Shown: positions 1,283 through 48,760 of the stretch, in pieces | Numbering within the stretch: position 1 is the first letter of the stretch | Layout of the letters: the number at the start of each line of letters is the position of its first letter | Source: Parcubacteria group bacterium GW2011_GWC1_45_13 | Lineage (GTDB): Bacteria; Patescibacteriota; Minisyncoccia; UBA11713; 2-01-FULL-45-33 | Assembly: GCA_001001285.1 (NCBI GenBank) | Contig: LCKG01000004.1 | Span: forward strand, 1,957-65,956 | Length of the DNA: 64,000 bases | Direction of reading: 5' to 3' | Position numbers and translations under genes: made by a program | The notes under the pieces: generated by a model | The model's database searches: none | Told to the model about the DNA's origin: nothing | What the model saw: the letters and a program-made list of their open reading frames with translations, nothing else

Positions 1283-3334
1283 CTAGGCCAGCACCAGCAA
1301 TAGCAAAGCCTTCGGTCGTACCGGAACCGGGGATAATCGTTGTTCCGCCGTCCCAATGCCGACGTTGCCGCTTCCTGCAACCACAAATGACGGCGTTGAT
1401 GTTCCTTCGTCTCCTACCCAAAACGGAAACTGTTGCGTGCCCATCTCTACTGACAAAAGTCCGGTTGGACTCGTCGTCCCGATGCCTAAAGCGCCTGTAA
1501 AGAAAGAAGCTGTTGAAGATGTGGCGTGCAGCCATCCGAAGGTGGGGGTAGTTGAGCCGTAGAAGTTGTGTACAGTGCCGGCGGCGGAAGAAACAATGCT
1601 GATTAAGTCGTTTGAAGCAAATGTTTGAGTTCCTCCTGTAAGCCCGTTAAGAGAAGAGATACCGCTTGCCGCGCCTATGCAAGTTCCGTTGGGCAAGCAA
1701 ACATTCCCTGTTCCTGTTACTTGAATTCCGCCAGCATAAGTTGAGGTGGCGGCGCCCAAAGCGGCAAAGACTCCTCCGGAGAGTATGAGTCCGGATGATT
1801 CAATGGCTCCGGCAGTTGTCGTGGCCATTCCTACTCCCAAGCCTCCGGAAGTTCCTCCGGCGGCTGAAGCTCCAATGAAAACATTCCCTCCTACCGATAA
1901 AAGTTGGGCTGGCGTGGTTGAAGAAATGCCAAGCCTGTTGTTAGCAGTGTTCCAGAAAAGATTGGAGTTGGTCAAAAAAGGTCCCGTGCCGTTTCCATAA
2001 AGTATTCCTCCGCTAATCAGAGTGGTTGTGCCTGTGCCTCCTATGTTAGTAGCAAGTGTTGAGGAAGAAGAAAGAATGCCGGTAGAGCCGAGCTCTGCTA
2101 TGCCCGCTCCCAAAGAACTGAATCTTACAGTACTTGTTGCAAAGAGCGTTCCGAAAAAAGGAGAAGAAGAGGCGTTGAAGTAGTGCACCGATCCTGCCGC
2201 TGGAGAAACGACATCTATGGGACCGCTGGCAGAGAAGGTCTGCGTTCCCCCTGTAAGCCCGTTAAGAGAGGTGATGCCTCCGCTTCCGGCTCCGGCGCAA
2301 GTGCCGTCAAGTAAAAGAAAACATCCTCCGGTAAGTTTTATCCCGTTGGCGAAAGTTGAAGTGGCCGAACCCGTCACCGCTAAATATCCGGTAGAAGTTG
2401 CATTTTGAAAAGTTAAATCTCCAACTACCGTTGAGGACGCCAGTGAAATAAATCCACCTGTTGTCAGAAGCCCAGACAAATTAAGTGTGGACGCGGAAAG
2501 AGAGTTTGTTGAAAGAGATGTAAATCCGGAAGCGGCTCCGGCAGAAGTAATTTTCCACGTATTGGAGGTGATTTCAGTGGATTTGGCCGAGTCGCCTAAA
2601 ATAATATTTCCAGTAGCAGTAAGATTTCCTCCTGTGGAAATTCCGTTGGAGAAATCTCCAAAAGAAGCTGAAACGCCCGAGCCGGTTTGCGGCGGAGAGT
2701 TGTAGGTTGGTCCGGGAATTGAGGCCGTTAAGAAAACAACCGGGTTTTGAACTTGATTGGAAGGAAGTCTTTTTTCCAAAGCCGCAAGAGAAAGCTGGAT
2801 TTGTGCAATAATGGAAGAGTTTATCTGGGCAAGGCGCTGGTCAATGTTTGAAGGAACAGAAAATTTGGACTCCAAAGAAGCCAACCTTGTTTGAAACGAG
2901 TCTAGACGGGCAAAGATTCCAGTCCAAGGCTGGTCCGTATTTGGTTGAGATGATGACTGGACTTTCGCAACAGACGGAGTTTCTGAAGTAGAAGTGCCGA
3001 AAGTCACAACTCTACTCCCCTCTGTGGGCAGCTCCAGAGTAGGAGCTTTCCCGGGCAACTCTTTGGCTATTTCAGTGGGTTCTGTGTATAGAAAATCTTC
3101 TACGACTAGCTTAAAGCCGCGCCCCAACGAAATCGTATAATCCCGCCAGGCGAAAAGATTACCCAAAAACCTGTCTTTAATATCGGAGAGAGAAAGTTTT
3201 ATATCTTCTAAAGTGAAAGGCGGTGCCGGTAAAGCGGCCAGAGATATCTCGGGAAGCGAGATATTACTCATTATATCTGGGAGTTCTGACAGCGATAGAA
3301 CGGTATAATCTTTCCAGGCAAAAAGATTGTTCAA
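1283..3334 (-). CDS. large Thr/Gly/Ser-rich repetitive surface or tail-fibre-like protein
   Basis: 683-aa ORF with low-complexity G/T/S repeats and duplicated modules (ISSLNGLTGGTQTF occurs twice; GNVGIGT / LGIGTTSP motifs typical of fibre or beta-helix proteins). N-terminal tandem repeat NLFAW(K/R)DYT. The C-terminal about 20 aa look out of frame. Confidence 0.6.
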   Translation of the reverse strand: MNNLFAWKDYTVLSLSELPDIMSNISLPEISLAALPAPPFTLEDIKLSLSDIKDRFLGNLFAWRDYTISLGRGFKLVVEDFLYTEPTEIAKELPGKAPTLELPTEGSRVVTFGTSTSETPSVAKVQSSSQPNTDQPWTGIFARLDSFQTRLASLESKFSVPSNIDQRLAQINSSIIAQIQLSLAALEKRLPSNQVQNPVVFLTASIPGPTYNSPPQTGSGVSASFGDFSNGISTGGNLTATGNIILGDSAKSTEITSNTWKITSAGAASGFTSLSTNSLSASTLNLSGLLTTGGFISLASSTVVGDLTFQNATSTGYLAVTGSATSTFANGIKLTGGCFLLLDGTCAGAGSGGITSLNGLTGGTQTFSASGPIDVVSPAAGSVHYFNASSSPFFGTLFATSTVRFSSLGAGIAELGSTGILSSSSTLATNIGGTGTTTLISGGILYGNGTGPFLTNSNLFWNTANNRLGISSTTPAQLLSVGGNVFIGASAAGGTSGGLGVGMATTTAGAIESSGLILSGGVFAALGAATSTYAGGIQVTGTGNVCLPNGTCIGAASGISSLNGLTGGTQTFASNDLISIVSSAAGTVHNFYGSTTPTFGWLHATSSTASFFTGALGIGTTSPTGLLSVEMGTQQFPFWVGDEGTSTPSFVVAGSGNVGIGTAEQRLSPVPVRPKALLLLVLA

Positions 3335-3350
3335 AAACCTGTTTTTAATA

Positions 3351-3842
3351 TTAAACAGAGATAGTTTTATATCTTCTAAAGTGAAAGGCAGTGCTTTTTT
3401 CTGACATTGCGCCGATTTTATTCATAACATCCAAAGAGCCGTCCGGATTCCAAAATATTAAGTTAAGCACGATCAGAGCGCTGGCAATCAGCGGAAATTT
3501 TTTTGATTTGAGCGCATCGGATAAGCTAAAAAATTTTTCTTCATAACCCAACAGGGCCTGGTCCCAATCGTCTAAACGAGATTTGCGAATAGAAAAAATT
3601 TGTCTTGTCAGTCCGTATAATTTATGAATCTCGCCAAAGCGAGCTGTTAAATTATTTTTTATACTTTTTAGTTGATTACCTTCGTTTCTATAATTTAAAA
3701 TTGATCTTTCCGAGACCATCCAATCTCGGCCGATGCGTCTACATTTCACTTTGCCAAGACGGCAAAGCTGGCCAACATAATCACTTGTGTAACCAGTTAT
3801 CTTTGCTACTTGTTTTGACGAGATATATTTCTCACCAGACAT
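3351..3842 (-). CDS. membrane-anchored HTH (MerR/excisionase-like HTH_17) protein
   Basis: N-terminal SKQVAKITGYTSDYVGQLCRLGKVKCRRIGRDWMV helix-turn-helix, followed by a hydrophobic segment FPLIASALIVLNLIFW. Confidence 0.45.
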   Translation of the reverse strand: MSGEKYISSKQVAKITGYTSDYVGQLCRLGKVKCRRIGRDWMVSERSILNYRNEGNQLKSIKNNLTARFGEIHKLYGLTRQIFSIRKSRLDDWDQALLGYEEKFFSLSDALKSKKFPLIASALIVLNLIFWNPDGSLDVMNKIGAMSEKSTAFHFRRYKTISV

Positions 3843-4829: not shown

Positions 4830-5553
4830 AAAAATAATTTTCTTCGGCGGTTTTAAGGTGTTTTCTGAAATATATCTTAATGCTCTCAAAAGCGCCGGTT
4901 TTGAAATTGTCTTAGAAGCCAAAAACGCGGATCTGGGCATTATTGCTTACTACGGAAAAATTATACCGAAAGCTGTTTTGGAGCTACCTAAATATGGGTT
5001 TTTGAACGCCCACCCGTCGCTGCTCCCCCGCTGGCGGGGGCCGTCTCCAATCCAGGCGGCTATTTTGGCCGGAGACAAAACCACCGGTGTGACTATACAT
5101 ATGGCAACGGAGGAGCCTGACGCCGGGCCGATTTTAGCCCAGAAAGAAATTCCGATAGAGCCCGAGGATACCTGTTTTAGCTTAACCGGGAAGCTCGCTA
5201 ATGAAGGCGCGGCGCTTTTAATCCCGACTATTGAAAAATGGCTTTTGGGTAAAATTGCTCCAAAAGAGCAGGACCACTCCAAGGCCACTTTCACTAGATT
5301 GATTAAAAAAGAAGATGGGCTGATTGATTGGACCAAGGGCGCCGAATATATAGAAAGAATGGTGCGGGCGTATAACCAGTGGCCCGGGACATTCATAAAA
5401 ATGAAAAATGGGAAGATTTTAAAAATAAAAAAGGCAGCGGTAATAAATGGTGCTTTAAAACTTTTAATAGTCCAGCCGGAGGGGAAAAAAGAAATGGCGT
5501 ATGACGCTTTTGTGAGAGGACACAGGGAGATTATAGGAGAGCCGCTCCGATAG
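4822..5553 (+). CDS. fmt: methionyl-tRNA formyltransferase
   Basis: NAHPSLLPRWRGPSPIQAAILAGDKTTGVTIH formyltransferase core. Follows def as in the canonical def-fmt operon. Confidence 0.85.
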   Translation: MPKKIIFFGGFKVFSEIYLNALKSAGFEIVLEAKNADLGIIAYYGKIIPKAVLELPKYGFLNAHPSLLPRWRGPSPIQAAILAGDKTTGVTIHMATEEPDAGPILAQKEIPIEPEDTCFSLTGKLANEGAALLIPTIEKWLLGKIAPKEQDHSKATFTRLIKKEDGLIDWTKGAEYIERMVRAYNQWPGTFIKMKNGKILKIKKAAVINGALKLLIVQPEGKKEMAYDAFVRGHREIIGEPLR

Positions 5554-6226
5554 CAGCGGCGTTTTTGCCGAATTTCGATTTTCTTACAGGCAATTTTACC
5601 GCTTTTTGAAACTCAGCCACAAAATTTTGCCTTCCGGTTACTCCCCCGCCAACTATTATTAGTTTAGGGTTGTATTCTTTAAAGCGCCATTTCAAATGTT
5701 GGACTAAAAAAATGGCGAGGGCGTAGTTATTTTTTGAATCGCGTAATTTCTGATATTCTTTTTCCCAGCTCTCTGGGTACTCAAATTTTTTAATTTTTAA
5801 AATTTTGCCGGCTCTGCTGATCGCGCGCCCTATGCCCGTCCCCAGCGTAATAAATAAAACGGCCTGCCCGTCTAAATGCGTTAGCCCTGCCTTGCCAGTA
5901 GGCAGGTTTTGGTGGGCTCTCGCGAAACACCTAGCATCGTTATCAAGCCGCAACTTAGACGTCGGACGTCTAAGTTGCGAAATATCAAAATTTTTAAGAT
6001 ATTTAATGTTGGGGCAAAATAGAATTTTATTTCCTGAAACTGCGCCGGGCACTCCGATGCCGATTTTCTTTGCGCGGTAACTTTTTAAAATATTTTCCAA
6101 AAGCTTTTTAAAAGCGGCTAAATTTTTAGGCGTTTTAAACTCGCGAGCTTTTACGGCCCGCTTGCTGTCCCACAAAACCGCGCGTATTTTTGTGCCTCCA
6201 ATGTCTATACCTAACATAATATCCAT
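5531..6226 (-). CDS. ROK / BadF-type sugar kinase (putative glucokinase)
   Basis: N-terminal MLGIDIGGTKIR actin-fold ATPase phosphate-1 motif and GIGVPG. Carries in-frame palindromic insertions (see findings). Confidence 0.6.
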   Translation of the reverse strand: MDIMLGIDIGGTKIRAVLWDSKRAVKAREFKTPKNLAAFKKLLENILKSYRAKKIGIGVPGAVSGNKILFCPNIKYLKNFDISQLRRPTSKLRLDNDARCFARAHQNLPTGKAGLTHLDGQAVLFITLGTGIGRAISRAGKILKIKKFEYPESWEKEYQKLRDSKNNYALAIFLVQHLKWRFKEYNPKLIIVGGGVTGRQNFVAEFQKAVKLPVRKSKFGKNAAAIGAALL

Positions 6227-11374: not shown

Positions 11375-12910
11375 ATGAAAAATTCTGCTTACTGGCTGAT
11401 TGTAATTATTTTAATTGCCGTTTTTTTGAGATTTTGGGATTTAAAAAATACTCCGCCCGGGTTTTGGTTGGATGAGGCTATGAACGGAACCAATGCTATC
11501 CAGGCTATAGAGATTAGTGGCTGGAAGGTGTTTTACCAGGAAAATTTCGGGAGAGAGGGATTATTTATAAATATCCAAGCGTTATTTGTAAAAACTTTTG
11601 GCCACGAGCCATGGGTTTTGCGCTTGCCTTCGGTGATTTTCGGCTTATTAACGGTCTTGGGACTTTATTTTTTGACAAAAGAACTGTTTTCTGGGCGTGT
11701 TTCGCTTTTCGCGTCTTTTTTTCTGGCAACTTCGTTCTGGCACATTAATTTTTCACGAATCGGGTTCCGCGCGATAATGGCTCCGTTTTTTTTGGTTTGG
11801 GCGTTTTATTTTTTATTTTTAGGAATGCGGAAGCAAAAAGAATGGATTTTCACCTCAGCCGGATTTACTTTCGGCCTCGGCTTTCACACTTATATTGCCT
11901 ATCGCGCCGCGCCCATAATCGCGTTTTTGCCTTTTTGGAGTTTTTATAAATCATGGCGAGAGGACACCGGACGTCCACTTGGACGTCCGGTGTCCAAGCA
12001 CTGCGCTCCATGCTTAATTGGCCTTTTTATTTTCATGGCGTTTTTAGCGGCATTGCCATTGCTCTGGTATTACGCCCAAAACCCTGCTGATTTCCTAGGC
12101 AGGACCTCGGCAATATCAGTATTTAAATCTTCAAATCCGCTTGGCCAATTTTCAGAAAATTTGGTAAAAACTTTGGGAATGTTTAATTTCGCCGGAGATT
12201 TCAATTGGCGGCACAATTTAGCAGGTTCGCCCCAGCTTTGGTGGCCCGTGGGAATTTTATTTTTGATAGGGATTTTTGGAGCATTGCGCTCGAGTGTTTT
12301 CCCGCGCAATGCTTATAATTTTATTTTGCTGTGGTTCATTGTCATGATTCTTCCCGTCGCGTTTTCAAATGAATCTCTGCCTCACGCGCTTCGCGCCATT
12401 GTTTTAATACCGCCAGCTATGATTTTCGCCGCTTTGGGGCTGGACTGGCTTTGGAGAAATGTCAGGCCGCGGCTTAGGATTTTTATTTATATTTTTTTAG
12501 TCACCGCCGCGATTCAGGCATACAGCCAGTATTTTCTCCGCTGGGCGCCAAACTTTAATGTTTATCAAGCCTTCCATACTGACATTACGGAAAAGGCGCG
12601 TTGGCTCAACAAACAACCAAATGATATTAAAAAATACGTCATAACTGACGCGGTTGATCGGGTAGACACAACCGGAACGCCCATGTCATTTCAGCCAATA
12701 ATTTTTATTACTGATACTGCCACGCCGGCAAAACAGACAAGGAAAAACATCTATTATGCTTCTCTGCAAAATATTTCTTCAGCAAATTGTTCCCAAAAAT
12801 GCCTTTTCGTGCCCGTTGAATACCAACCTTCCATTTTTAAAATTATCAAACAAAAAATCCCGGGTTTGCGTCTAGACGCCTCTTCGGGATTTGTGGTTTT
12901 GAAAAAATGA
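11375..12910 (+). CDS. GT39-family (ArnT/PMT-like) membrane glycosyltransferase
   Basis: 511 aa with more than 10 TM helices and dolichyl-phosphate-mannose / ArnT-like N-terminal architecture. TATAAT at 11362 just upstream. Contains an in-frame palindromic element encoding EDTGRPLGRPVSK. Confidence 0.65.
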   Translation: MKNSAYWLIVIILIAVFLRFWDLKNTPPGFWLDEAMNGTNAIQAIEISGWKVFYQENFGREGLFINIQALFVKTFGHEPWVLRLPSVIFGLLTVLGLYFLTKELFSGRVSLFASFFLATSFWHINFSRIGFRAIMAPFFLVWAFYFLFLGMRKQKEWIFTSAGFTFGLGFHTYIAYRAAPIIAFLPFWSFYKSWREDTGRPLGRPVSKHCAPCLIGLFIFMAFLAALPLLWYYAQNPADFLGRTSAISVFKSSNPLGQFSENLVKTLGMFNFAGDFNWRHNLAGSPQLWWPVGILFLIGIFGALRSSVFPRNAYNFILLWFIVMILPVAFSNESLPHALRAIVLIPPAMIFAALGLDWLWRNVRPRLRIFIYIFLVTAAIQAYSQYFLRWAPNFNVYQAFHTDITEKARWLNKQPNDIKKYVITDAVDRVDTTGTPMSFQPIIFITDTATPAKQTRKNIYYASLQNISSANCSQKCLFVPVEYQPSIFKIIKQKIPGLRLDASSGFVVLKK

Positions 12911-16645: not shown

Positions 16646-16720
16646 TGCCCCCGCCGGGATTTGAACCCGGGTTACATGGATGAGAACCATGCGTCCTAGA
16701 CCAGACTAGACGACAGGGGC
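16646..16720 (-). tRNA. tRNA-Glu (anticodon CUC)
   Basis: Acceptor GCCCCUG/CGGGGGC, anticodon loop UUCUCAU, T-arm CCGGG-UUCAAAU-CCCGG. Confidence 0.75.
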
Positions 16721-16738
16721 CTGTCTGCGCAGGCAGGC

Positions 16739-20069: not shown

Positions 20070-20954
20070 TTAAATTTTTTCTAAAACTCTTAATTTGGCC
20101 GACCTGGAACTAGGATTTTTAATAATTTCTTCCTGGGATGCGGTTTTTGGTTTTTTAGTCAGAATGATTGCCTTTTTTCCGACAACGGCGGAAAAAAAGT
20201 TTTTTACGATTCTGTCTTCCAGAGAATGATAGGAAATAATCGCCAGCCTCCCGCCGGCATCCAACGCGTCAAACGATTTAGGCAGAGCTTCTGTTAAAGC
20301 TTCCAACTCGTTGTTTACCGCTATCCGCAAAGCTTGGAATATCCGCGCCAGTATCTTCTCTCGGCCATCCGGCTTTTGCGCGCCCAGAGCATTGAGCAAA
20401 TCTTTTACTGAAATGATGCGCCTGCCTTGCCGGTAGGCAGGCTGTTTTTTTCTGAACTCCATGATTTTTTTGGCAAACAGCCTTGCTTTTGGTTCTTGTC
20501 CGAAATTTTTAAATATTTCTGCGAGCCTGTCTTCGGGATATCCATTTAATATTTCGGCAGCCGTGTTCGCGGATTTTTTATTTAAATTCATAAATAACGC
20601 CTCCTCCGGCTTTTGAAAAGAAAATCCTCTTCCGCTTTGTTCAAGATGCCACCGCGACATGCCGAGATCGAATAATACGGCTTTTATTTTGTTAAACCCA
20701 AGTTTTTTGATAATTTCATCAATATCTTTGAAATTTCCCCAAATAGCTGTAATATTTTTGTCTCCCTCCATCCGTTCAATCATGCTTTTATCCTGGTCTA
20801 TCCCCAGCACTTTGCCGCCTGGTTTTATAAGCTCCAGCATCATTCGCGCGTGCCCGCCGCCGTTCAAGGTGGCGTCCACCGCGTTATCCCCCGGCTTAAG
20901 ATTTAAAAGTACTTTCAATTCTTCAGTTAAAACCGGCGTGTGGATCTCTTGCAT
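20070..20954 (-). CDS. rsmH: 16S rRNA (cytosine1402-N4)-methyltransferase
   Basis: N-terminal HTPVL...DATLGGGGH signature (here VDATLNGGGHA). Follows mraZ. Confidence 0.9.
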   Translation of the reverse strand: MQEIHTPVLTEELKVLLNLKPGDNAVDATLNGGGHARMMLELIKPGGKVLGIDQDKSMIERMEGDKNITAIWGNFKDIDEIIKKLGFNKIKAVLFDLGMSRWHLEQSGRGFSFQKPEEALFMNLNKKSANTAAEILNGYPEDRLAEIFKNFGQEPKARLFAKKIMEFRKKQPAYRQGRRIISVKDLLNALGAQKPDGREKILARIFQALRIAVNNELEALTEALPKSFDALDAGGRLAIISYHSLEDRIVKNFFSAVVGKKAIILTKKPKTASQEEIIKNPSSRSAKLRVLEKI

Positions 20955-28849: not shown

Positions 28850-28866
28850 TTTGGTGATTGATTACC

Positions 28867-29578
28867 CCACTTGGACGTCCGACGTCCAAGTGGCTATTAA
28901 TTTTCTAAAGATAACAGAACCTCTAGCTCTTTTAATAATTCTTTTCTTTGTAAAATATTTTTTAATGACTCTTCTCCAAATGTCTTATATTCTTTTTTGT
29001 TTTTAAATTGCTTAAGAATAATATTTTTATTACAAAGGTTTTCTTCACTTGAACTAATAAATTCTTCCCAACTAGAATAGGCGCCCCCCTCTTTTAATCT
29101 ATGTGCGCGGTTATTTAAATTTACATAAACGCTTGCATGCAATAAATATTCATTGGAATCAATATGACTAGATTTAAATTTGCCCTGAAAAAGTACGCCG
29201 CTCCTTTTATATTTATTATTAAAATACTTTGTATAGCCACCATTTAATCTTTTCATAAACTCGCTTAATCCACCGTCTGTTTTTGGCTCCAAAATCATAT
29301 GATAATGATTTGGATTAAGGCAATAGCAAATGATATTCACCAACTTGGACGTCTGACGTCCAAGTCGGGGTTTATCGAATGAATTTTCGTAAATACTGCC
29401 TATTGGTTCTAGAGAATTAAATTCCTTCATACTTTGAAGAAACCTCTTGAAATCATAATCGTTGTTAAATACAATACGCTTATCAGTGCCGCGGTTATAG
29501 ATATGATAAAATTCACCAATCATGAAAGCGGTTTTTCTCATGATACTATATTAGCACTTGGACGTCCGACGTCCAAGT
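28867..29578 (-). mobile_element. REP-RAYT unit: IS200-like HuH tyrosine transposase flanked by REP palindromes
   Basis: Palindromes ccacttggacgtccgacgtccaagtgg (28867-28893) and acttggacgtccgacgtccaagt (29556-29578) flank the transposase ORF. A third copy (29343-29365) lies inside it. Confidence 0.65.
28897..29541 (-). CDS. IS200/IS605-family Y1 HuH transposase (REP-associated tyrosine transposase-like)
   Basis: N-terminal YHIYNRG..R..IF strand, HuH motif NPNHYHMIL, downstream LFQGKF..SHID...EYLLHASVYVNLN resembling the RAYT WQ..F.DH signature. Confidence 0.7.
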   Translation of the reverse strand: MRKTAFMIGEFYHIYNRGTDKRIVFNNDYDFKRFLQSMKEFNSLEPIGSIYENSFDKPRLGRQTSKLVNIICYCLNPNHYHMILEPKTDGGLSEFMKRLNGGYTKYFNNKYKRSGVLFQGKFKSSHIDSNEYLLHASVYVNLNNRAHRLKEGGAYSSWEEFISSSEENLCNKNIILKQFKNKKEYKTFGEESLKNILQRKELLKELEVLLSLEN

Positions 29579-29595
29579 TGGGAAGTGGGTATAGA

Positions 29596-36390: not shown

Positions 36391-36654
36391 TTGACGACTT
36401 TTTATGTGTTTAGTAAACTTATAGTGATGGATTTAATACAAAAGAAATATCTCACCATTCATCAAGCCGCCAAATTAATAGGCGTTACCGCGCTTACGCT
36501 TAGAAATTGGGACAATCTGCGCAAATTTCAAGCAGCCAGGCACCCCATAAACAATTATCGGGTCTATACTTTAGAACAAATTGAATCATTGCTTAAAAAA
36601 TTAGGACTGCCTAAGCCTGCCAAGAAATTGGTTATAAAGATTTTAGAGGATTAG
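36391..36654 (+). CDS. MerR-family / excisionase-like HTH DNA-binding protein
   Basis: LTIHQAAKLIGVTALTLRNWDNLRKF HTH. Located immediately 5' of the IR-bounded cassette. Confidence 0.55.
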   Translation: MTTFYVFSKLIVMDLIQKKYLTIHQAAKLIGVTALTLRNWDNLRKFQAARHPINNYRVYTLEQIESLLKKLGLPKPAKKLVIKILED

Positions 36655-36701
36655 TAAGGTTTATTAATATTTTGGACATTATACGACAAAATCAGAACCT
36701 T

Positions 36702-36959
36702 TTTTGAGCAAAATCCCAACTGATTTACCCCTTCATTCACCCCTTCATCGGCTCTGCCTCGGAATGAAGGGGTAGCTCTGTTGATTTGCCTTATGTTTAC
36801 TGGACTTTCTAACCTTCGCTCTTCAAAATCCCAAACCCGACTTCACTCCGCTACGCCCCATTCCACGCTTGTGCTGTTTTCCACGAAAGTCCTCCTGTGG
36901 AGGACTGGCTCGCCGCCCAGCTGGGCGGCTCGCAGGTCGCCGGAATTCCTCCCCTCAAA
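36702..36959 (+). repeat. IR-L: about 260-nt structured repeat, inverted partner of IR-R (39880-40139)
   Basis: By-eye alignment to the reverse complement of 39880-40139 gives about 80% identity. Contains hairpins ccccttcattc/gaatgaagggg, gtcctcc-tgt-ggaggac and gccgccc-agct-gggcggc. Confidence 0.7.
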
Positions 36960-37018
36960 CCCCTCCTTTCGGCTGGTCCTTAGATGAGGTAGATAAGCAG
37001 TTATCCACAGGTGAGTAC

Positions 37019-37047
37019 TTTACAAGAATGTGATATTGGTATAGGAT
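37019..37047 (+). promoter_or_regulatory. putative promoter for the cassette (TTTACA-17-TAGGAT)
   Basis: -35-like TTTACA, 17-nt spacer, TAGGAT, about 40 nt upstream of the GHKL ATPase ATG. Weak. Confidence 0.25.
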
Positions 37048-37087
37048 CATACTATCACTTAATAAACTATCAATTAGTATACAAAAT

Positions 37088-38740
37088 ATGGAAAAAAACC
37101 AAAAAACTGAGACCATAGATATCACACCGGATAAGAGTATTTATCACAAAATTGGGGAAGCTAATTATTCGATCTCTGATGCACTTGCAGAATTAGTAGA
37201 CAACTCAATTGATGCTGCGAATGAAGATGGCGTCGAGATATTTATTGTCTTAGATAAGAAGGGAGAAAAAATCATTGTCGAAGACAACGGGCAAGGGATG
37301 AGCAAAGAGATAGCTTCGAAGAGTCTAGTACTTGCCTATTCTAAAAAACATGATGCACTAGGCGAGTTTGGCTTGGGTTTAAAATCAGCTTGCACAAGTC
37401 TCGGAACAATTTTTGTTATAACAAGTACTCCAAAAGGCTCTGAAGAAAAATATACTCTCGAATATAATAAGGAGCAATTTTTACAATCAAGTGATTGGCA
37501 TAAGTATCCTCTTACAATCATAAAGGCTCCGAAGAATGAACACGGAACAAAAATAGAAATTAGTAGTTTGAAGATCAAATTATATGATGCACTTGTTACG
37601 CGTCTCAAGGAGGACTTAGCAAAAAGATACGGCCCATATATTGAGCATAACAATGTTGTCATTAAAGTCGGCTTGAGGAGAGAGACGGCTAAACCGTGCG
37701 TACCTAGCGAAAATAAACTAGTTCCTGACTCGAAGAAAGATTTCTCATATATGCTTTCAAAAGGAAGCACTATTACGGGTTGGTATGGTCTTTTAGAGGT
37801 TGGATCACAAAAACAAAGCGGTTTCAACCTATTCCGAAGAGGACGATTAATAAGAGCGTCTGAGAAACTTGGTTATAACTATCACCCACACCTTATGAGT
37901 GTTGCGGGGGAAATAAATTTGGATTCCGTACCAGTAACACACAATAAACGAGAATTCATTATTGAATCTAGCGAATTTAAAGAATTTATTGAAAAATTTT
38001 GGGGCGATCAAACTGAAAAATATTTGGGGTACAAAGTTAAGGGTAAAATCGATGAGATAACAAAAACCGCCAGAGATCGATCAAGCCAAGAAAAAGCGGA
38101 TAGTATGCCAGTTGAAAGAAAAGAAACAATAAAAAATAACTTATTGAATGCCCTTAACCGCCTCGATGAATTCAAAGAATTAGCTTACCCAGATCTATAT
38201 CAACCTAAAAAGAGGTCTGCAACTGGGAAGGAAGATTTTAAGGAAACCAGAGAAACTGATTTGCGAGTAGCTAAAGAAGAGGAAGTGCCGCTTACAAAGG
38301 AAGAAAGGGATCAAAGAACACCCAAAAAGACACAGCCCAAAACAGCCAAGTTTATAATGGTTGGGGGGAAAAAATTCAAATTTGATTTCTTTCTAAGAAA
38401 TCTGGGGAACGATACTATCGATAAGGAAACTATTATTAATCAAGAAAATGTTATCGAAATATATATTAACACGGGATTCAAGGGTTATGGTTTAACAAAG
38501 GATACTGATTTTTATTCTACCTTCCATATAGCGGAGGCTATTGCCGAACTTTATGTTAAAGAAGCTAATCAAAAGGTAGAAAGGATTTTTGAGCTAAGAA
38601 ATAGTCTCATATACGAAGTTGCATCTTTAATATACGAGGAAGAGGAATATAAAAGGCTTGAAAAAACTGAAAAAGAGTTGGCTGCAGTTACTGACAAAAA
38701 AAGAGAGCTTGAAGAAAAGAGAGCAAGAACGAGTTTATGA
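37088..38740 (+). CDS. MORC/MutL-type GHKL ATPase (HATPase_c_3) with C-terminal coiled coil
   Basis: Bergerat-fold motifs: N-box ALAELVDNSIDA, G1 box VEDNGQGM, G2 box GEFGLGLKSA; K/E-rich C-terminal coiled coil. Codon usage is AT-richer than the flanking genes. Confidence 0.75.
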   Translation: MEKNQKTETIDITPDKSIYHKIGEANYSISDALAELVDNSIDAANEDGVEIFIVLDKKGEKIIVEDNGQGMSKEIASKSLVLAYSKKHDALGEFGLGLKSACTSLGTIFVITSTPKGSEEKYTLEYNKEQFLQSSDWHKYPLTIIKAPKNEHGTKIEISSLKIKLYDALVTRLKEDLAKRYGPYIEHNNVVIKVGLRRETAKPCVPSENKLVPDSKKDFSYMLSKGSTITGWYGLLEVGSQKQSGFNLFRRGRLIRASEKLGYNYHPHLMSVAGEINLDSVPVTHNKREFIIESSEFKEFIEKFWGDQTEKYLGYKVKGKIDEITKTARDRSSQEKADSMPVERKETIKNNLLNALNRLDEFKELAYPDLYQPKKRSATGKEDFKETRETDLRVAKEEEVPLTKEERDQRTPKKTQPKTAKFIMVGGKKFKFDFFLRNLGNDTIDKETIINQENVIEIYINTGFKGYGLTKDTDFYSTFHIAEAIAELYVKEANQKVERIFELRNSLIYEVASLIYEEEEYKRLEKTEKELAAVTDKKRELEEKRARTSL

Positions 38741-38810
38741 GACCCAAAGATATAGGAAAGACAAACATAAAGGTCGATACGATAATAATAAATTATAATT
38801 TAATACCACA

Positions 38811-39233
38811 ATGAAGAAAAAAGTTTTTGTTAGCTTCGATTATGATAATGATAAGCACTACAAATATCTTCTTGAGGCATGGGACGCGAATCCTCAATTT
38901 AATTTTGTCTTCAATGACGCGACACCAGAGGAAATCGATAGCTACAATATCGGTAGAATCAAAGCGGCCTTAACCTTAAAAGTTAAGGAGGCAGACTACA
39001 CACTAGTTCTTGTAGGTAAGGAAGCGAATAAGACCCATAGACACAGTCGACTTATTGGCTTTAAAAACTGGATCAACTTTGAGGTTGCTAAGAGTAAAGA
39101 GCTTGGAAACAAAATCGTTGCCGTCAAATTAGATAGAGAGAATGAATCTCCAGAGGAGCTGCTCGACTCAGGTGCTTCTTGGGCTATGAGTTTTTCTCAA
39201 GCCGCAATTATCAAGGCATTGAATGATGCCTAA
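38811..39233 (+). CDS. TIR-like domain protein (DUF1863 / ThsB-like)
   Basis: N-terminal KKVFVSFDYDNDKHYKYLLEAW matches the beta-A strand and start of TIR-like MTH538/DUF1863 domains. 140 aa. Confidence 0.55.
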   Translation: MKKKVFVSFDYDNDKHYKYLLEAWDANPQFNFVFNDATPEEIDSYNIGRIKAALTLKVKEADYTLVLVGKEANKTHRHSRLIGFKNWINFEVAKSKELGNKIVAVKLDRENESPEELLDSGASWAMSFSQAAIIKALNDA

Positions 39234-39243
39234 GTGAATATCT

Positions 39244-39849
39244 ATGAGCATAAGCGACGATAAAAAACTAGAGACGCTTAACGATCACTACAAAGATACA
39301 TTCGCTCAAATACGTGATTATATCTCACTGCGTGATAAGTTGTTGATCTGGATTCTCTTGGTAGCTGCAGTGATGTTATTCGAAGTTTTTTCTCCGAGTG
39401 AGGCCGGCTTAGCTATCGCACAATTTGCGTCCGAAAAGGTCGGCCTTAATGGAGCCTTAATTAACACCTCATTCATCGGAAGCGTCATTTGGTTTTTGAT
39501 GCTCGTTTTGACAATGAAATATTTTCAAACAGTGGGGTTAATTGAGAAACATTATGATTATATTGAAAAAGTAGAGGACGCTATAAGAAAAAACTACGAT
39601 GGAGCTACGGGAATCTTTTCTAGAGAGGGACGACACTATCTCGAAAACTATCCTCTCTTTTCTGATTGGTCGTGGCTCTTATATACGATAATTTTCCCGA
39701 TACTATTAGTCGCCGTTTTGTTATATAAAATATATAATGAGGTTTTTATTTCAGGTTGCAGCGTGATTTTCTATATAAATCTTTTAATATTTATTTGCAT
39801 AGTTACGTCAACGATTCTTTATTTAAGGATGTTGCATTTTAAAAAATAG
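39244..39849 (+). CDS. four-TM membrane protein (candidate effector of the cassette)
   Basis: 201 aa; hydrophobic helices at about 33-52, 85-105, 141-161 and 172-194. Tightly linked (10-nt gap) to the TIR-like gene. Confidence 0.5.
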   Translation: MSISDDKKLETLNDHYKDTFAQIRDYISLRDKLLIWILLVAAVMLFEVFSPSEAGLAIAQFASEKVGLNGALINTSFIGSVIWFLMLVLTMKYFQTVGLIEKHYDYIEKVEDAIRKNYDGATGIFSREGRHYLENYPLFSDWSWLLYTIIFPILLVAVLLYKIYNEVFISGCSVIFYINLLIFICIVTSTILYLRMLHFKK

Positions 39850-45403: not shown

Positions 45404-47308
45404 TTATTTCTTATCCTCTCCCTCTTCTTTAAAATCGGCGTCTTTGATGTCAGGGCCCGATTTATCTCCGCCACTGCCATCTTCCGGTTTTTTATACATC
45501 GCTTCGCCGATTTTGGAGAGAGATTGGGCGAGCTCCGTTTCAGCGGAGCGGATTCCAGCGACATCGTCTCCGTCTTTAACTTTTTTAAGTGCCTCTATTT
45601 TTTGGCTAACTTCGTCTTTTATCCCCTGTTCAATTTTGCCTGCCTTGCCGTCAGGCAGGTCACCCGCATCGCGCAACGACTTTTCTGCGGTGTAAACCAA
45701 AGCGTCCGCGCGGTTTTTGGCTTCAACCAATTCTTTTTTCTTTTTATCGTCTTCGGCGTGGAGTTCCGCGTCCTTTTTCATTTTTTCAATTTCATCTTTA
45801 GAAAGCCCCGTGGAAGCTTCAATCCTGATGGATTGCTCTTTATTCGTCGCCTTGTCCTTGGCTTTTACGGATAAAATTCCGTTTGCGTCAATATCAAAGC
45901 TGACTTCCACCTGCGGCATGCCGCGAGGCGATGGAGGAATCCCATCCAAAATAAATCTGCCGAGGGTTTTGTTATCTCCCGCCATCTCGCGCTCGCCCTG
46001 CAAAACGTGAATTTCCACGGAAGTTTGGTTGTCTGCGGCGGTCGAGAAAACCTGTGAACGCGCTACTGGCACCGTAGTATTTTTTTCAATAATTTTGGTC
46101 ATCACTCCCCCCAAGGTCTCAATACCCAAAGAAAGCGGGGTGACGTCCAAAAGCAAAACGTCCTTCACGTCGCCCTGCAAAATTCCGCCCTGCACCGCCG
46201 CGCCTACTGCCACAACTTCGTCCGGATTTATGGAAAGATTAGCTTCTTTCCCAAAAAGTTTTTTAATGCCCGCTTGAATCGCTGGCATTCTCGTTTGGCC
46301 CCCGACCAAAACTATTTCGTCAATTTCCTGCATTTTAAAACCCGATTCATCCACCACTTTCTTAGTAATCTCAAAAGACCTATTTAAATAATCTCCTACC
46401 AGCTCTTCCAGTTTGGCACGGGTGAATTTCATCAAAAGATGCCGCGGGCCGGAGGCGTCGGATGTGATGAAAGGAATATTTATTTCCGTCTCAACCGTGG
46501 TGGAAAGCTCGTGCTTGGCTTTCTCCGCAGCTTCTTTCAGGCGCTGAAGAGCCAAAACATCCTTGGTGACATCAATGCCCGATTCTTTTTTAAATTCCAC
46601 AGCGATATATTGGATAATTTTTTGATCAAAATCGTCCCCTCCCAAATGCGTGTCGCCTCCCGTGGCACGGACTTCAATGGTATCATCCCCAATTTCCAAA
46701 ACGGAAAGGTCGAATGTGCCTCCACCGTAATCGTAAACCACTATTTTTTCATTTTTCTTTTTATTTAATCCGTAGGCTAAAGCCGCGGCTGTGGGTTCGT
46801 TTAAAATCCGGCGAACTTGCAAACCAGCAATCTCGCCGGCCGCTTTGGTTGCTTGTCTTTGGGCATCGTCAAAATAAGCAGGCACGGTAATGATGGCTTC
46901 TTCAATTTTTTCTCCCAGCTTGGCTTCGGCGTCGGTTCTTAATTTCGCTAAAATCATCGCCGAAATTTCTTCCGGCCGGTACCATTTTTCATTTATTTTT
47001 ACGTCCACTCCGCCGTTGGCCGATTCTTTGATTTCATAAGGCAACAAGGTTTTATCGCGTTTAACTTCCGTATCGCCGAATTTCCTGCCAATCAATCGTT
47101 TTACCGAAAAAATGGTGTTTTTGGGGTTGGTCACTGCCTGTCTTTTTGCCAAAAGGCCGACCAGGCGCTCGCCTGTTTTTGAAAACGCGACCATTGAGGG
47201 CGTGGTGCGCGCGCCCTCCGCGTTTTCCAATATTTTCGGGACTCCCCCTTCCACGACCGCCATCGCGGAGTTGGTCGTTCCCAAGTCTATTCCTAAAATT
47301 TTTGCCAT
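45404..47308 (-). CDS. dnaK: chaperone DnaK (Hsp70)
   Basis: [19 protein letters not shown] and related Hsp70 motifs; 634 aa. Confidence 0.95.
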
Positions 47309-47331: not shown

Positions 47332-47874
47332 TTAATTTTGAGATTTATAAACCCCGACTTTTACTTTGGAGGGTCGCAAGACCCGATCATAAATCATATA
47401 TCCTTTCTGTAATTCTTCCACCACCGCATTATCTTCTGTTTCGTCTAAAACTTCTTTTTTCTCCAGCGCTTCATGCTCCAACGGATTAAATTGTTTCCCC
47501 AGCGCCTCAATCGGCAGAACTCCTTCTTTTTTTAATATATCAACTAATTGATTATGGATGGGATCCTCCCCGTCTTTGCCAAAGCTTCGGCGAGCAAGCA
47601 ACGAATCAGCCACCGCCAGCATTTCTCTTAAAACTTTCTCTGCGGCAAATTTGGCAAATTCAGCCCTGGCTTTTTCTTCATCCTTCCTCGCGTTTATAAA
47701 ATCTGCTTTCGCTCTCTGCCAGCCAGCCAGATAATTGTCCCGCTCGTTTTTCACCGCCTTCAGCTCTTCTTTTAGTTTCGTCAGCTTGTCTTTGGCCGTT
47801 TCCTCATCTCCCTCATTAATAATTTCCACGTCATCATCCATATTATTTCCTTCTTTTATTTTTCCCCGACGCAC
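47332..47874 (-). CDS. grpE: nucleotide exchange factor GrpE
   Basis: Coiled-coil N-terminus plus GrpE beta-domain. True start probably the Met at 47841, since the track ORF overlaps the hrcA 3' end. Confidence 0.85.
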   Translation of the reverse strand: MRRGKIKEGNNMDDDVEIINEGDEETAKDKLTKLKEELKAVKNERDNYLAGWQRAKADFINARKDEEKARAEFAKFAAEKVLREMLAVADSLLARRSFGKDGEDPIHNQLVDILKKEGVLPIEALGKQFNPLEHEALEKKEVLDETEDNAVVEELQKGYMIYDRVLRPSKVKVGVYKSQN

Positions 47875-48598
47875 TAATAATATTTTTTAATAACGAAGTC
47901 GGGGTCCCGACTTTACGTCGGGAAACATCCCCCTTTGCATATTTTAAAACCGACCCAGCTTTTTCATAATTCATCCTGCGGGGGCCCAAAGATATCATGG
48001 CAAACCTCCCCCAATTTTCATCTTCAAAAAGCATTCCGGCCATTCCGAATTCACCAATCGTGAATTCTGGCTCCTCCGATTTTTTGTTCTGTCCGCCGAA
48101 GATTTCCGACACGACTTTTTCCAAATGCTCGGTCAAATTAACAAAATCAACCGCGCGGTTTTGTTCCATAAATTCAGGCTCTTTCAAAACTTCCGACAAG
48201 CCGTGCTTAAAAAATCTGTTTTCGTCTTCCAAAAAAATCGCCGAAAAAAGCCCGAGGTGTCCGGAGATGGCGCTATTTAATTCCTCAAATATTTCGCCAG
48301 GCTGCACAAAAATTTTATCCATTGAGCGCCGGATATAGGCCTCTGGCTCCTTAAGACGCATTAGATTTTGAATAAAATAACGATAACCTTTATCCGTAGG
48401 GGTCCGGCCGGCGGAGGTGTGGGGCTGTTCCAAAAAACCGCCGTTATCCAGCTCCAGCATGGTATTTCTGATAGTTGCCGGGCTCACGCCCAAGCTCACT
48501 TTTTTATTGACACGCTCGGAAGACACGGGGCTGGCCGTCCGGACATAATCCCGCACGATAAAATCCAAAATATTTTCTTTTCTGCTGTCTAAACGCAT
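47843..48598 (-). CDS. hrcA: heat-inducible transcription repressor HrcA (short form)
   Basis: N-terminal winged helix ILDFIVRDYVRTASPVSSERV. Heads the hrcA-grpE-dnaK-dnaJ operon behind CIRCE. Confidence 0.8.
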   Translation of the reverse strand: MRLDSRKENILDFIVRDYVRTASPVSSERVNKKVSLGVSPATIRNTMLELDNGGFLEQPHTSAGRTPTDKGYRYFIQNLMRLKEPEAYIRRSMDKIFVQPGEIFEELNSAISGHLGLFSAIFLEDENRFFKHGLSEVLKEPEFMEQNRAVDFVNLTEHLEKVVSEIFGGQNKKSEEPEFTIGEFGMAGMLFEDENWGRFAMISLGPRRMNYEKAGSVLKYAKGDVSRRKVGTPTSLLKNIISASGKNKRRK

Positions 48599-48617: not shown

Positions 48618-48644
48618 TTAGCACTCTCTATACAAGAGTGCTAA
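48618..48644 (-). promoter_or_regulatory. CIRCE operator (TTAGCACTC-N9-GAGTGCTAA)
   Basis: Perfect match to the CIRCE consensus: ttagcactc tctatacaa gagtgctaa, about 20 nt upstream of hrcA. Confidence 0.85.
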
Positions 48645-48760
48645 CGCAAAATCAGGCCGTTGGTTTCTCCGCCTGCCTGCCGGTAGGCAGGCTTGACTTT
48701 TTTAATTTTTCTGCATAAGCTGAAATCAGAGGAGCTTTAAGCTCCAAAAAGGAGGGCCAT

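Follow-up and report, generated by a model that had tools for sequence, protein, structure and literature searches.

A 20–21-nt hairpin lying in frame in housekeeping genes of a Parcubacteria bacterium belongs to a very widespread family of candidate REP-like mobile palindromes

How does one short palindrome come to lie, in frame, within several unrelated housekeeping genes of the same bacterium? The question is raised by a 64,000-nt stretch of DNA from Parcubacteria group bacterium GW2011_GWC1_45_13 (contig LCKG01000004.1, positions 1,957 to 65,956; the whole of this stretch is hereafter referred to as the window), in which near-identical 21-nt hairpins occupy genes for a ROK-family kinase, RsmH and DnaK. 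The initial annotation saw in them a second family of small palindromes, mobile or recombinogenic, which enter coding sequence and leave the reading frame intact. Our analysis supports this proposal, with mobility inferred from independent presence/absence differences between relatives. With moderate confidence, we regard the hairpin as representing a family of mobile palindromes that are ultra-short, non-autonomous and very widespread, that resemble repetitive extragenic palindromes (REPs), and for which mobilization in trans by an enzyme of the HUH/Y1 type is the mechanism that we favour.

The window contains five members of the family: three 21-nt copies in frame within genes, and two intergenic copies of 20 and 18 nt. 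For the three genic copies, the positions, sequences and decoded peptides given in the initial annotation are all borne out. The first (CCTGCCTTGCCAGTAGGCAGG; 5886-5906, plus strand) lies within the ROK-family kinase gene (5531-6226, minus strand) and encodes LPTGKAG, within the context NLPTGKAGL, in a variable loop flanked by the DNDA and LGTGIG motifs. The second (20421-20441, plus strand) has the canonical sequence, CCTGCCTTGCCGGTAGGCAGG, and encodes PAYRQGR, within the context QPAYRQGRR, in rsmH (20070-20954, minus strand); alignment to PDB entry 1wg8 places this peptide between helices of the small insert domain. The third (CCTGCCTTGCCGTCAGGCAGG; 45639-45659, plus strand) has two mismatches to the canonical sequence and contributes LPDGKAG, within the context DLPDGKAGK, to a loop in the C-terminal lid of the dnaK product (45404-47308, minus strand). 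A fourth copy had been reported upstream of hrcA (47843-48598, minus strand); its presence is confirmed, but its coordinates, previously 48671-48690, are corrected to 48672-48691 (plus strand). This 20-nt sequence, CCTGCCTGCCGGTAGGCAGG, is one base off a perfect palindrome, looks terminator-like on the plus strand, and lies beside a conserved TTGACT box, 27 nt upstream of a CIRCE operator. The operator itself (48618-48644; TTAGCACTC-N9-GAGTGCTAA) is canonical, precedes hrcA-grpE-dnaK-dnaJ and is retained in the relatives L128 and L129. These four main copies have identical orientations, and the genes concerned were identified via Pfam as encoding a ROK kinase, RsmH (MraW), DnaK and HrcA.

The GC-rich hairpin that had been described as related, between murF and the gene for tRNA-Glu, is also real. 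Its 18-nt core (CCTGTCTGCGCAGGCAGG; 16720-16737, no strand assigned) lies precisely between the stop codon of murF and the tRNA 5' end, and flanking GG/CC bases lengthen the stem to 9 bp; in the relative L124 the tRNA arrangement at this site is different. It is probably a diverged member of the family, because it is the sole additional match in a relaxed scan for the arms CCTGCCT and AGGCAGG (loop of 2-9 nt; no more than one mismatch over both arms), which otherwise recovers only the four main copies and for which 0.03 matches are expected per window. In shuffled sequences, the chance expectation per window is 0.01 for the 21-mer with three or fewer mismatches, and 0.06 for CCTGCC-N3-15-GGCAGG; the motif is therefore far more frequent than expected in the window and, as described below, across public genomes. 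Either strand of the 21-mer can fold to give a 7-bp stem and a 7-nt loop, at about -6 kcal/mol as DNA.

Comparisons with relatives reveal both filled and empty versions of the occupied sites. In RsmH, the hairpin corresponds to an exact seven-residue insertion with respect to 18 orthologues, some of them 82-84% identical (FRKK-QPAYRQG-RRII versus FRKT-RRII), and the rsmH DNA of three relatives is shorter by exactly 21 nt; the filled allele is present on 31 contigs from several sources. The window derives from a Candidatus Giovannonibacteria (Patescibacteria) genome recovered from groundwater metagenomes, its RsmH being 100% identical to a protein given that name by NCBI. The DnaK proteins of Giovannonibacteria show an exact seven-residue indel with a patchy distribution: most sequences read AGD-KVE at this point, several are filled, and the filled state is scattered across a phylogeny of the 560 N-terminal residues. 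The peptide is thus not universal among the orthologues of either protein. One pair of filled and empty dnaK alleles with 97.7% DNA identity reads GGAGA[CCTGCCTGACGGCAAGGCAGG]TAAAATT versus GGAGA/AAAAATT (here and below, a slash marks the junction); the difference is 21 nt, and there is no target-site duplication. Upstream of hrcA, the copy is a 20-nt insertion that is absent in L128 and L129 (GTCAAT/AGGGAAAAC versus GTCAAG[hairpin]CGGAGAAAC). Additionally, a ROK relative with 77% identity (P0122/L202) lacks the hairpin, and its loop is shorter by exactly 21 nt, although residues within the loop align ambiguously. These comparisons show that the complete 20–21-nt unit appears precisely at new sites without duplicating its target.

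The copies differ in age. That in dnaK is common to lineages that are only 82% identical in DnaK, and it can be arranged in a series that runs from the canonical TACC through TGCC (L129) to TGAC (window), with further changes in L131; it is an old and decayed copy. The rsmH and ROK copies, by comparison, are canonical or one base off, and are confined to the species-level lineage of the window; they are young. It follows that the insertions occurred at different times. Moreover, dnaK of L130 carries a separate copy, CCTGCCTACCGGACAGGCAGG (encoding LPTGQAG), seven codons upstream and again at a GA/C junction, which is a second, independent insertion. The patchiness in dnaK has a further source: in the filled/empty pair described above (L132 versus L133), there are five differences (~0.4%) in the first 1388 nt and ~39 (~8%) in the last 500 nt, a mosaic pattern that points to homologous recombination within dnaK between two Giovannonibacteria strains. 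The patchiness thus reflects, at least in part, the shuffling of alleles by recombination rather than repeated insertion, and an account of all of it through repeated insertion and excision is correspondingly weakened. Separately, the DnaK of another relative (P0286) carries a lineage-specific 10-residue insertion, SAIGGSASGG, farther along the lid, which is unrelated to the hairpin.

How far does the element extend beyond this lineage? An exact search for the 21-mer in one genome per bacterial and archaeal species (596 Gb) located it in at least 119 stretches, where ~0.5 would be expected by chance. Identical copies occur in at least eight bacterial phyla: among the matches listed, on which the remaining figures in this paragraph are based, Bacteroidota are the most frequent hosts, and the others include Ignavibacteria/Chlorobiota, many classes of Patescibacteria, Planctomycetia, Omnitrophota, Cloacimonadota and Proteobacteria. 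Cultured strains of Algoriphagus and Marixanthomonas also carry it. The flanks of the various sites are mutually unrelated and have no fixed tetranucleotide, and there is only a weak preference at the junctions, with G or A preceding the unit in 83% of cases and T or C following it in 78% (in the CCTGCCTTGCC orientation). Nesting within an outer stem is enriched without being the rule (10 of 107 copies; 2.4 expected), and 15 of the 107 have a T-rich tail. Copies occur as singletons or as direct tandems (L008 and L135), and there are no close inverted pairs among ~120 sites. The hairpin often lies inside or beside another shared repeat, CGTCATTSCGAR...YTCGSAATGAC (for example, in L020, L035, L052, L071, L092, L106 and L113), which resembles the CGTC-tagged class of REPs described by Di Nocera et al. 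2013.

A less biased view of the family was provided by scanning phage contigs for CCTGCCT-N0-1-GCCGGYAGGCAGG. This gave 85 sites, of which 42 have the perfect palindrome CCTGCCTGCCGGCAGGCAGG, the commonest form; a further 14 have a one-off variant that is identical to the hrcA-upstream copy of the window, and the remaining 29, all 21-mers, have one additional base at the centre, seven of these being canonical. The 21-mer of the window is thus one branch of a cloud of variants: the centre of the family is the perfect 20-nt palindrome CCTGCCTGCC/GGCAGGCAGG, and the window has the 21-nt derivative CCTGCCTTGCCGGTAGGCAGG. Members are found in intergenic DNA, at the tips of other palindromes, in protein-coding genes and in the variable arm of a phage tRNA. 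The last of these is a 92-nt phage tRNA-Met (L176, 2239-2330; predicted by ARAGORN), the variable arm of which consists of the perfect 20-nt palindrome. In another stretch of phage DNA (L192, ~515-534), a D-loop-like sequence, GTAGCTCAGTTGGTA/GAGC, is interrupted by the perfect palindrome, and no tRNA is predicted. A phage contig, L135, has direct tandems that resemble terminators and a copy following an HNH gene. The most elaborate arrangement is seen at 8890-10560 of L172 (phage-like; IMGVR_UViG_3300037242_000417), where palindromic repeats of 55-80 nt have a common outer scaffold, GGGTGCCCCATCCTYG...CRAGGGTGGGTC, and a core that is either CCTGCCTGCCGGCAGGCAGG or the unrelated palindrome TCCGCCGCGGCGGA, such that cores have been swapped within one scaffold. 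A 1.35-kb segment is bounded by two of these repeats in inverted orientation, each 80 nt long and with the palindrome at its centre.

Approximately one-third of the genome copies sit in long open reading frames (ORFs; among the matches listed). The host genes include recA, dnaE (DNA polymerase III alpha), uvrD, mnmA and truB, as well as those for aminoacyl-tRNA synthetases and ribosomal proteins S3 and L22, and the genic copies that were checked contribute a short peptide rich in Pro and Gly (LPTGKAG, PAYRQGR or CLPARQ) to a loop or terminal segment. The CCTGCCTACCGGCAAGGCAGG strand is free of stop codons in every frame, whereas the opposite strand reads TAG in one of them, and a 3:2 ratio of orientations is therefore expected in genes; among the matches listed, the CCTGCCTACCGGCAAGGCAGG strand is in fact the coding strand in 31 of 38 genic copies (p=0.007 against 3:2). 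By contrast, the orientation of the intergenic copies listed is unbiased with respect to neighbouring genes (40:42), and thus the genic bias reflects a filter at the coding level; a replication-strand bias as its cause is ruled out on the same grounds. Length tells a similar story: for family members that were not used for locus selection, in low-GC loci, units with a length of 3n are genic in 10 of 17 cases, compared with 3 of 17 for other lengths (p=0.03, or 0.06 without duplicate events). In the window, likewise, the three genic copies are all of 21 nt and the two intergenic ones are not. The 20-nt palindromes that appear deep in GC-rich phage ORFs were discounted, as all 10 of those tested fall outside any Pfam domain and the ORFs are therefore probably over-extended. 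Statistically, then, a selective filter acts in genes, leaving mostly 21-nt copies in the stop-free orientation, and the data fit a situation in which only seven-codon, stop-free versions persist there. In a Saccharibacteria metagenome-assembled genome (L079, region 2106-3560), MnmA ends in the hairpin peptide, YLPTGKAGK, and a ThiI-like gene, which follows a Y1-like fragment described below, carries another variant, ALPAGRQE.

The window also encodes a transposase. Its 214-residue product, of the Y1 (IS200-like) type, is specified by a minus-strand gene at 28897-29541 (Pfam Y1_Tnp, E=1e-8), although it scores below the cut-off of the NCBIfam model for REP-associated tyrosine transposases (RAYTs). 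On both sides the gene is flanked by palindromes of another family (family 1; ACTTGGACGTC-N-GACGTCCAAGT), namely CCCCACTTGGACGTCCGACGTCCAAGTGG at 28865-28892 and CACTTGGACGTCCGACGTCCAAGTTGGG at 29555-29582, and a third family-1 copy lies in frame inside the gene itself (29340-29369), encoding PRLGRQTSKLV. By its layout, the region 28865-29582 is like a REPtron unit and, because of these flanking palindromes, the Y1 gene looks like the partner of family 1 and not of the 20–21-nt hairpin; it was rejected as a candidate for the latter role. An association between the hairpin and a transposase, which the initial annotation had suggested looking for, was thus not found. The motifs NHYH, FQ and YVNLNN of the Y1 protein resemble those of subclass 2.1 of Quentin et al. 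2018 (PMC6006769), a subclass that is listed there as being without REPs. The ROK kinase gene does carry a second, different palindrome, as had been noted: it belongs to family 1 (CGCAACTTAGACGTCGGACGTCTAAGTTGCG; 5949-5979), is in frame and encodes QLRRPTSKLRL. This palindrome is kept in relatives down to ~70% identity and is therefore older than the 21-nt hairpin in the same gene. At 11962-11995, inside an ORF (11375-12910), lies a perfect palindrome of 34 nt that shares the GGACGTCC core of family 1.

Neither the hairpin sequence, nor its reverse complement, nor the encoded peptides were found in the searchable literature, and more general searches surfaced only work on REPs, Rickettsia palindromic elements (RPEs) and the small dispersed repeats (SDRs) of cyanobacteria. 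A close parallel is with the REPs, in-frame intragenic copies of which are known from replication and repair, tRNA synthetase and TruB genes, and families of which are common to distant organisms (PMC3733652). The hairpin is, like them, a short, GC-rich, dispersed palindrome that occurs in frame in the same classes of gene (PMC3733652), and the window also has a RAYT-like gene flanked by palindromes, albeit those of family 1. However, REPs have as a hallmark the tetranucleotide GTAG or CGTC at one end of the stem-loop (PMC3733652), whereas in the hairpin GTAG is only internal, across the loop and 3' arm (CCGGTAGGCAGG), and the unit ends are CCTGCC and GGCAGG. It further differs from the REPs in its length of 20-21 nt, in the exact identity of its sequence across phyla and phages, in occurring singly or in direct tandem instead of in inverted pairs (REPIN or BIME), and in that no cognate RAYT flanked by the hairpin was found near the copies or in metagenome scans, although a cognate gene may lie farther away.

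Other short elements provide partial likenesses. The RPEs are tolerated in frame, as extra surface peptides, in functional protein genes of Rickettsia (PMC3733652). The resemblance of the hairpin to these is limited to that tolerance. RPEs are some 100-150 bp long and are not known outside Rickettsia, as opposed to 21 nt and cross-phylum for the hairpin. The SDRs of heterocyst-forming cyanobacteria are reportedly hairpin-forming repeats of 21-27 nt, often nested and with interchangeable cores, whose mobility is said to have been inferred by Elhai et al. in 2008 from presence or absence at orthologous sites. If so, they would match our hairpin in size class, nested copies, swapped cores and orthologous presence/absence, but differ from it in sequence, and in belonging to one cyanobacterial group rather than to many phyla and phages; for the hairpin, moreover, in-frame colonization of housekeeping genes is prominent. 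The GC clusters and double-hairpin elements of fungal mitochondria are also very short GC-rich palindromes, set in genomes richer in AT, single or tandem and occasionally in frame, with no encoded enzyme; they are, however, organellar, their sequences are unlike the hairpin, and some families create short target duplications. Miniature inverted-repeat transposable elements have terminal inverted repeats, target-site duplications and lengths of ~50-500 bp, whereas the indels seen here are of exactly 21 or 20 nt, far below that size, and without duplication. Elements derived from IS200/IS605 (PATE-like) share the lack of target duplication, but have distinct left and right subterminal hairpins and insert 3' of a fixed 4-5-nt target, in contrast to the single hairpin and absence of a fixed target in the present case. 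Nor is the hairpin simply an intrinsic terminator, given that three window copies are inside genes and that T-rich tails are confined to the minority of copies mentioned above, although a few copies may have been co-opted as such. The kind of element is therefore ordinary; what is unusual is its minimal size, its reach across phyla and phages, and its want of a partner gene.

By what means might such a unit move? In the mechanism that we favour, it would do so as a single-stranded DNA hairpin that is mobilized in trans, with an HUH/Y1-type enzyme (a RAYT or an IS200-like protein) as the likeliest agent; homologous recombination between strains would then shuffle the filled and empty alleles, and copies in genes would be retained only when seven codons long and stop-free. 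HUH/Y1 chemistry allows precise insertion and excision, and leaves no duplications. It is because of this precision that such an agent is preferred, and because the genome encodes an enzyme of this type together with a second palindrome family that is in frame in genes.

A number of observations weigh against this interpretation, and most of them concern the enzyme. The one Y1 transposase in the window is flanked by family 1, and none of the searches linked an enzyme to the 20–21-nt hairpin. No Pfam family recurs among the 125 ORFs within 500 nt of copies. A search of 1.5 Mb of sequence around the hairpins, using tblastn and a profile hidden Markov model built from 150 homologues of the window transposase, gave a profile match to only one Y1-like fragment, in L079, which is interrupted by an assembly gap, follows MnmA and is preceded by a different palindrome of its own, ATTGAGGTTCAACCTCAAT; a weak match in L115 was dismissed on inspection, its sequence not being transposase-like. 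In 241 million metagenome records, scanned twice, neither the hairpin nor the perfect palindrome stood at REPtron spacing ahead of YH[IV]xNRG, a motif conserved at the N terminus of the transposase, whereas the same design recovers the family-1 arrangement in the window; applied to viral contigs, it found no instance of family 1 together with a transposase. Additionally, REPs normally co-evolve with a lineage-specific RAYT, such that identity across phyla is unexpected, and the hairpin has neither the terminal GTAG/CGTC tag nor the inverted doublets. Finally, some features fit copying during replication or repair better than transposition: the tandem and partial arrays in L090 (three repeats of GTAGGCAGG) and L008 (three units), and an insertion in L007 that lies beside similar native sequence (LPTGKAG-LPTG).

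These last features are what a spread without any dedicated enzyme would lead one to expect, an alternative that we regard as possible though doubtful. Hairpin-bearing single-stranded fragments, of genomic, foreign or phage origin, would anneal at microhomologies at the replication fork and be copied or ligated in, while template switching at quasi-palindromes would convert variants towards or away from the perfect palindrome, and, where hairpin loops evade mismatch repair, conversion would tend to favour the filled allele. Such a scheme would account for the absence of an associated gene family in every test, for variants that lie one or two edits from the perfect palindrome, for the arrays in L008, L090 and L135 and the L007 insertion, and for the swapping of cores within one outer scaffold in L172. 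It would also suit the finding that bases adjoining the junction differ between filled and empty alleles, with substitutions clustering near the dnaK indel. Against it stands the appearance of the complete unit, with constant ends, at unrelated sites that lack homology, such as GGAGA/AAAA in dnaK. Moreover, copying of resident sequences should lead to divergence between phyla, yet the 21-mer is identical in at least eight of them, and the enzyme-free route would therefore need very frequent transfer between phyla. A bolder and rather unlikely reading would make the hairpin a self-sufficient 'nano-element', the smallest mobile DNA unit described, which moves among unrelated phyla with phages as carriers and without an element-specific transposase, by exploiting a universal host activity on single-stranded hairpins or the short-patch illegitimate recombination of foreign DNA; the seven-residue loop insertions in essential proteins would then be a by-product.

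The remaining explanations have much less to commend them. Were the hairpin a functional module maintained by selection, whether by terminating transcription, stabilizing RNA, binding a protein or contributing a useful seven-residue peptide, one could point to those copies that, being followed by T-runs, look like intrinsic terminators (the L135 phage copy and the hrcA-upstream copy of the window, as well as the T-rich tails already mentioned), and to the perfect 20-bp palindrome as the type of site bound by a dimeric protein. But most copies have no T-tail, no Rfam family matches the hairpin (12 loci were searched and only a tRNA was found), and the use of three reading frames means that there is no single peptide; the copies, furthermore, occupy unrelated genes and positions, are absent from close relatives in which the genes are intact, and decay when old, as in dnaK of L131, all of which renders this explanation very improbable. 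Slighter still are the chances that the hairpin is an excision scar, or the back-to-back termini, of a larger transposon with inverted ends CCTGCCT...: the arms do resemble minimal terminal inverted repeats, and the 80-nt inverted repeats centred on the palindrome in L172 do flank a 1.35-kb segment, but each of those repeats contains the whole palindrome, no full-length element with half-hairpin ends was seen in the 1.5 Mb of flanks, and neither the identity nor the asymmetric loops across phyla would be anticipated. As for chance, composition, or an assembly or adapter artefact, only the short length of the hairpin could suggest it, and we consider its probability negligible in view of the 0.01-0.06 occurrences per window given by shuffles, the 31 contigs from several sources with the filled rsmH allele, the copies in cultured isolates, their in-frame placement and the decayed copy that is common to related lineages. 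No convincing match is known to a conserved RNA (16S, RNase P or SRP) or to a sequencing adapter.

Should the REP-like, trans-mobilized interpretation be correct, 20-21 bases would suffice for mobile behaviour across many phyla, even in Patescibacteria with their tiny, gene-dense genomes, where the hairpin would persist through its length of seven stop-free codons, and the known size limit of mobile elements would be lowered. Lineage-specific loop insertions in essential proteins, DnaK, RecA and DnaE among them, would have a straightforward origin in the hairpin, which would also supply sharp presence/absence markers for strain tracking and for the detection of recombination in metagenomes. 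It also raises the question of which enzyme or repair pathway recognizes one hairpin in such different bacteria. For annotation, there is a practical warning: LPTGKAG, PAYRQGR and LPAGRQA in protein alignments would be insertions of DNA origin and not conserved protein motifs.

Elsewhere in the window, the region 36391-39849 is likely to be a defence or foreign island: it is encoded on the opposite strand, has the lowest GC content of the window (0.38) and shows a reversed GC skew. Its genes specify a MerR-like helix-turn-helix protein, a 550-residue MORC/GHKL-type ATPase (HATPase_c_3), a ThsB-like TIR protein (38811-39233) and a protein of 201 residues.

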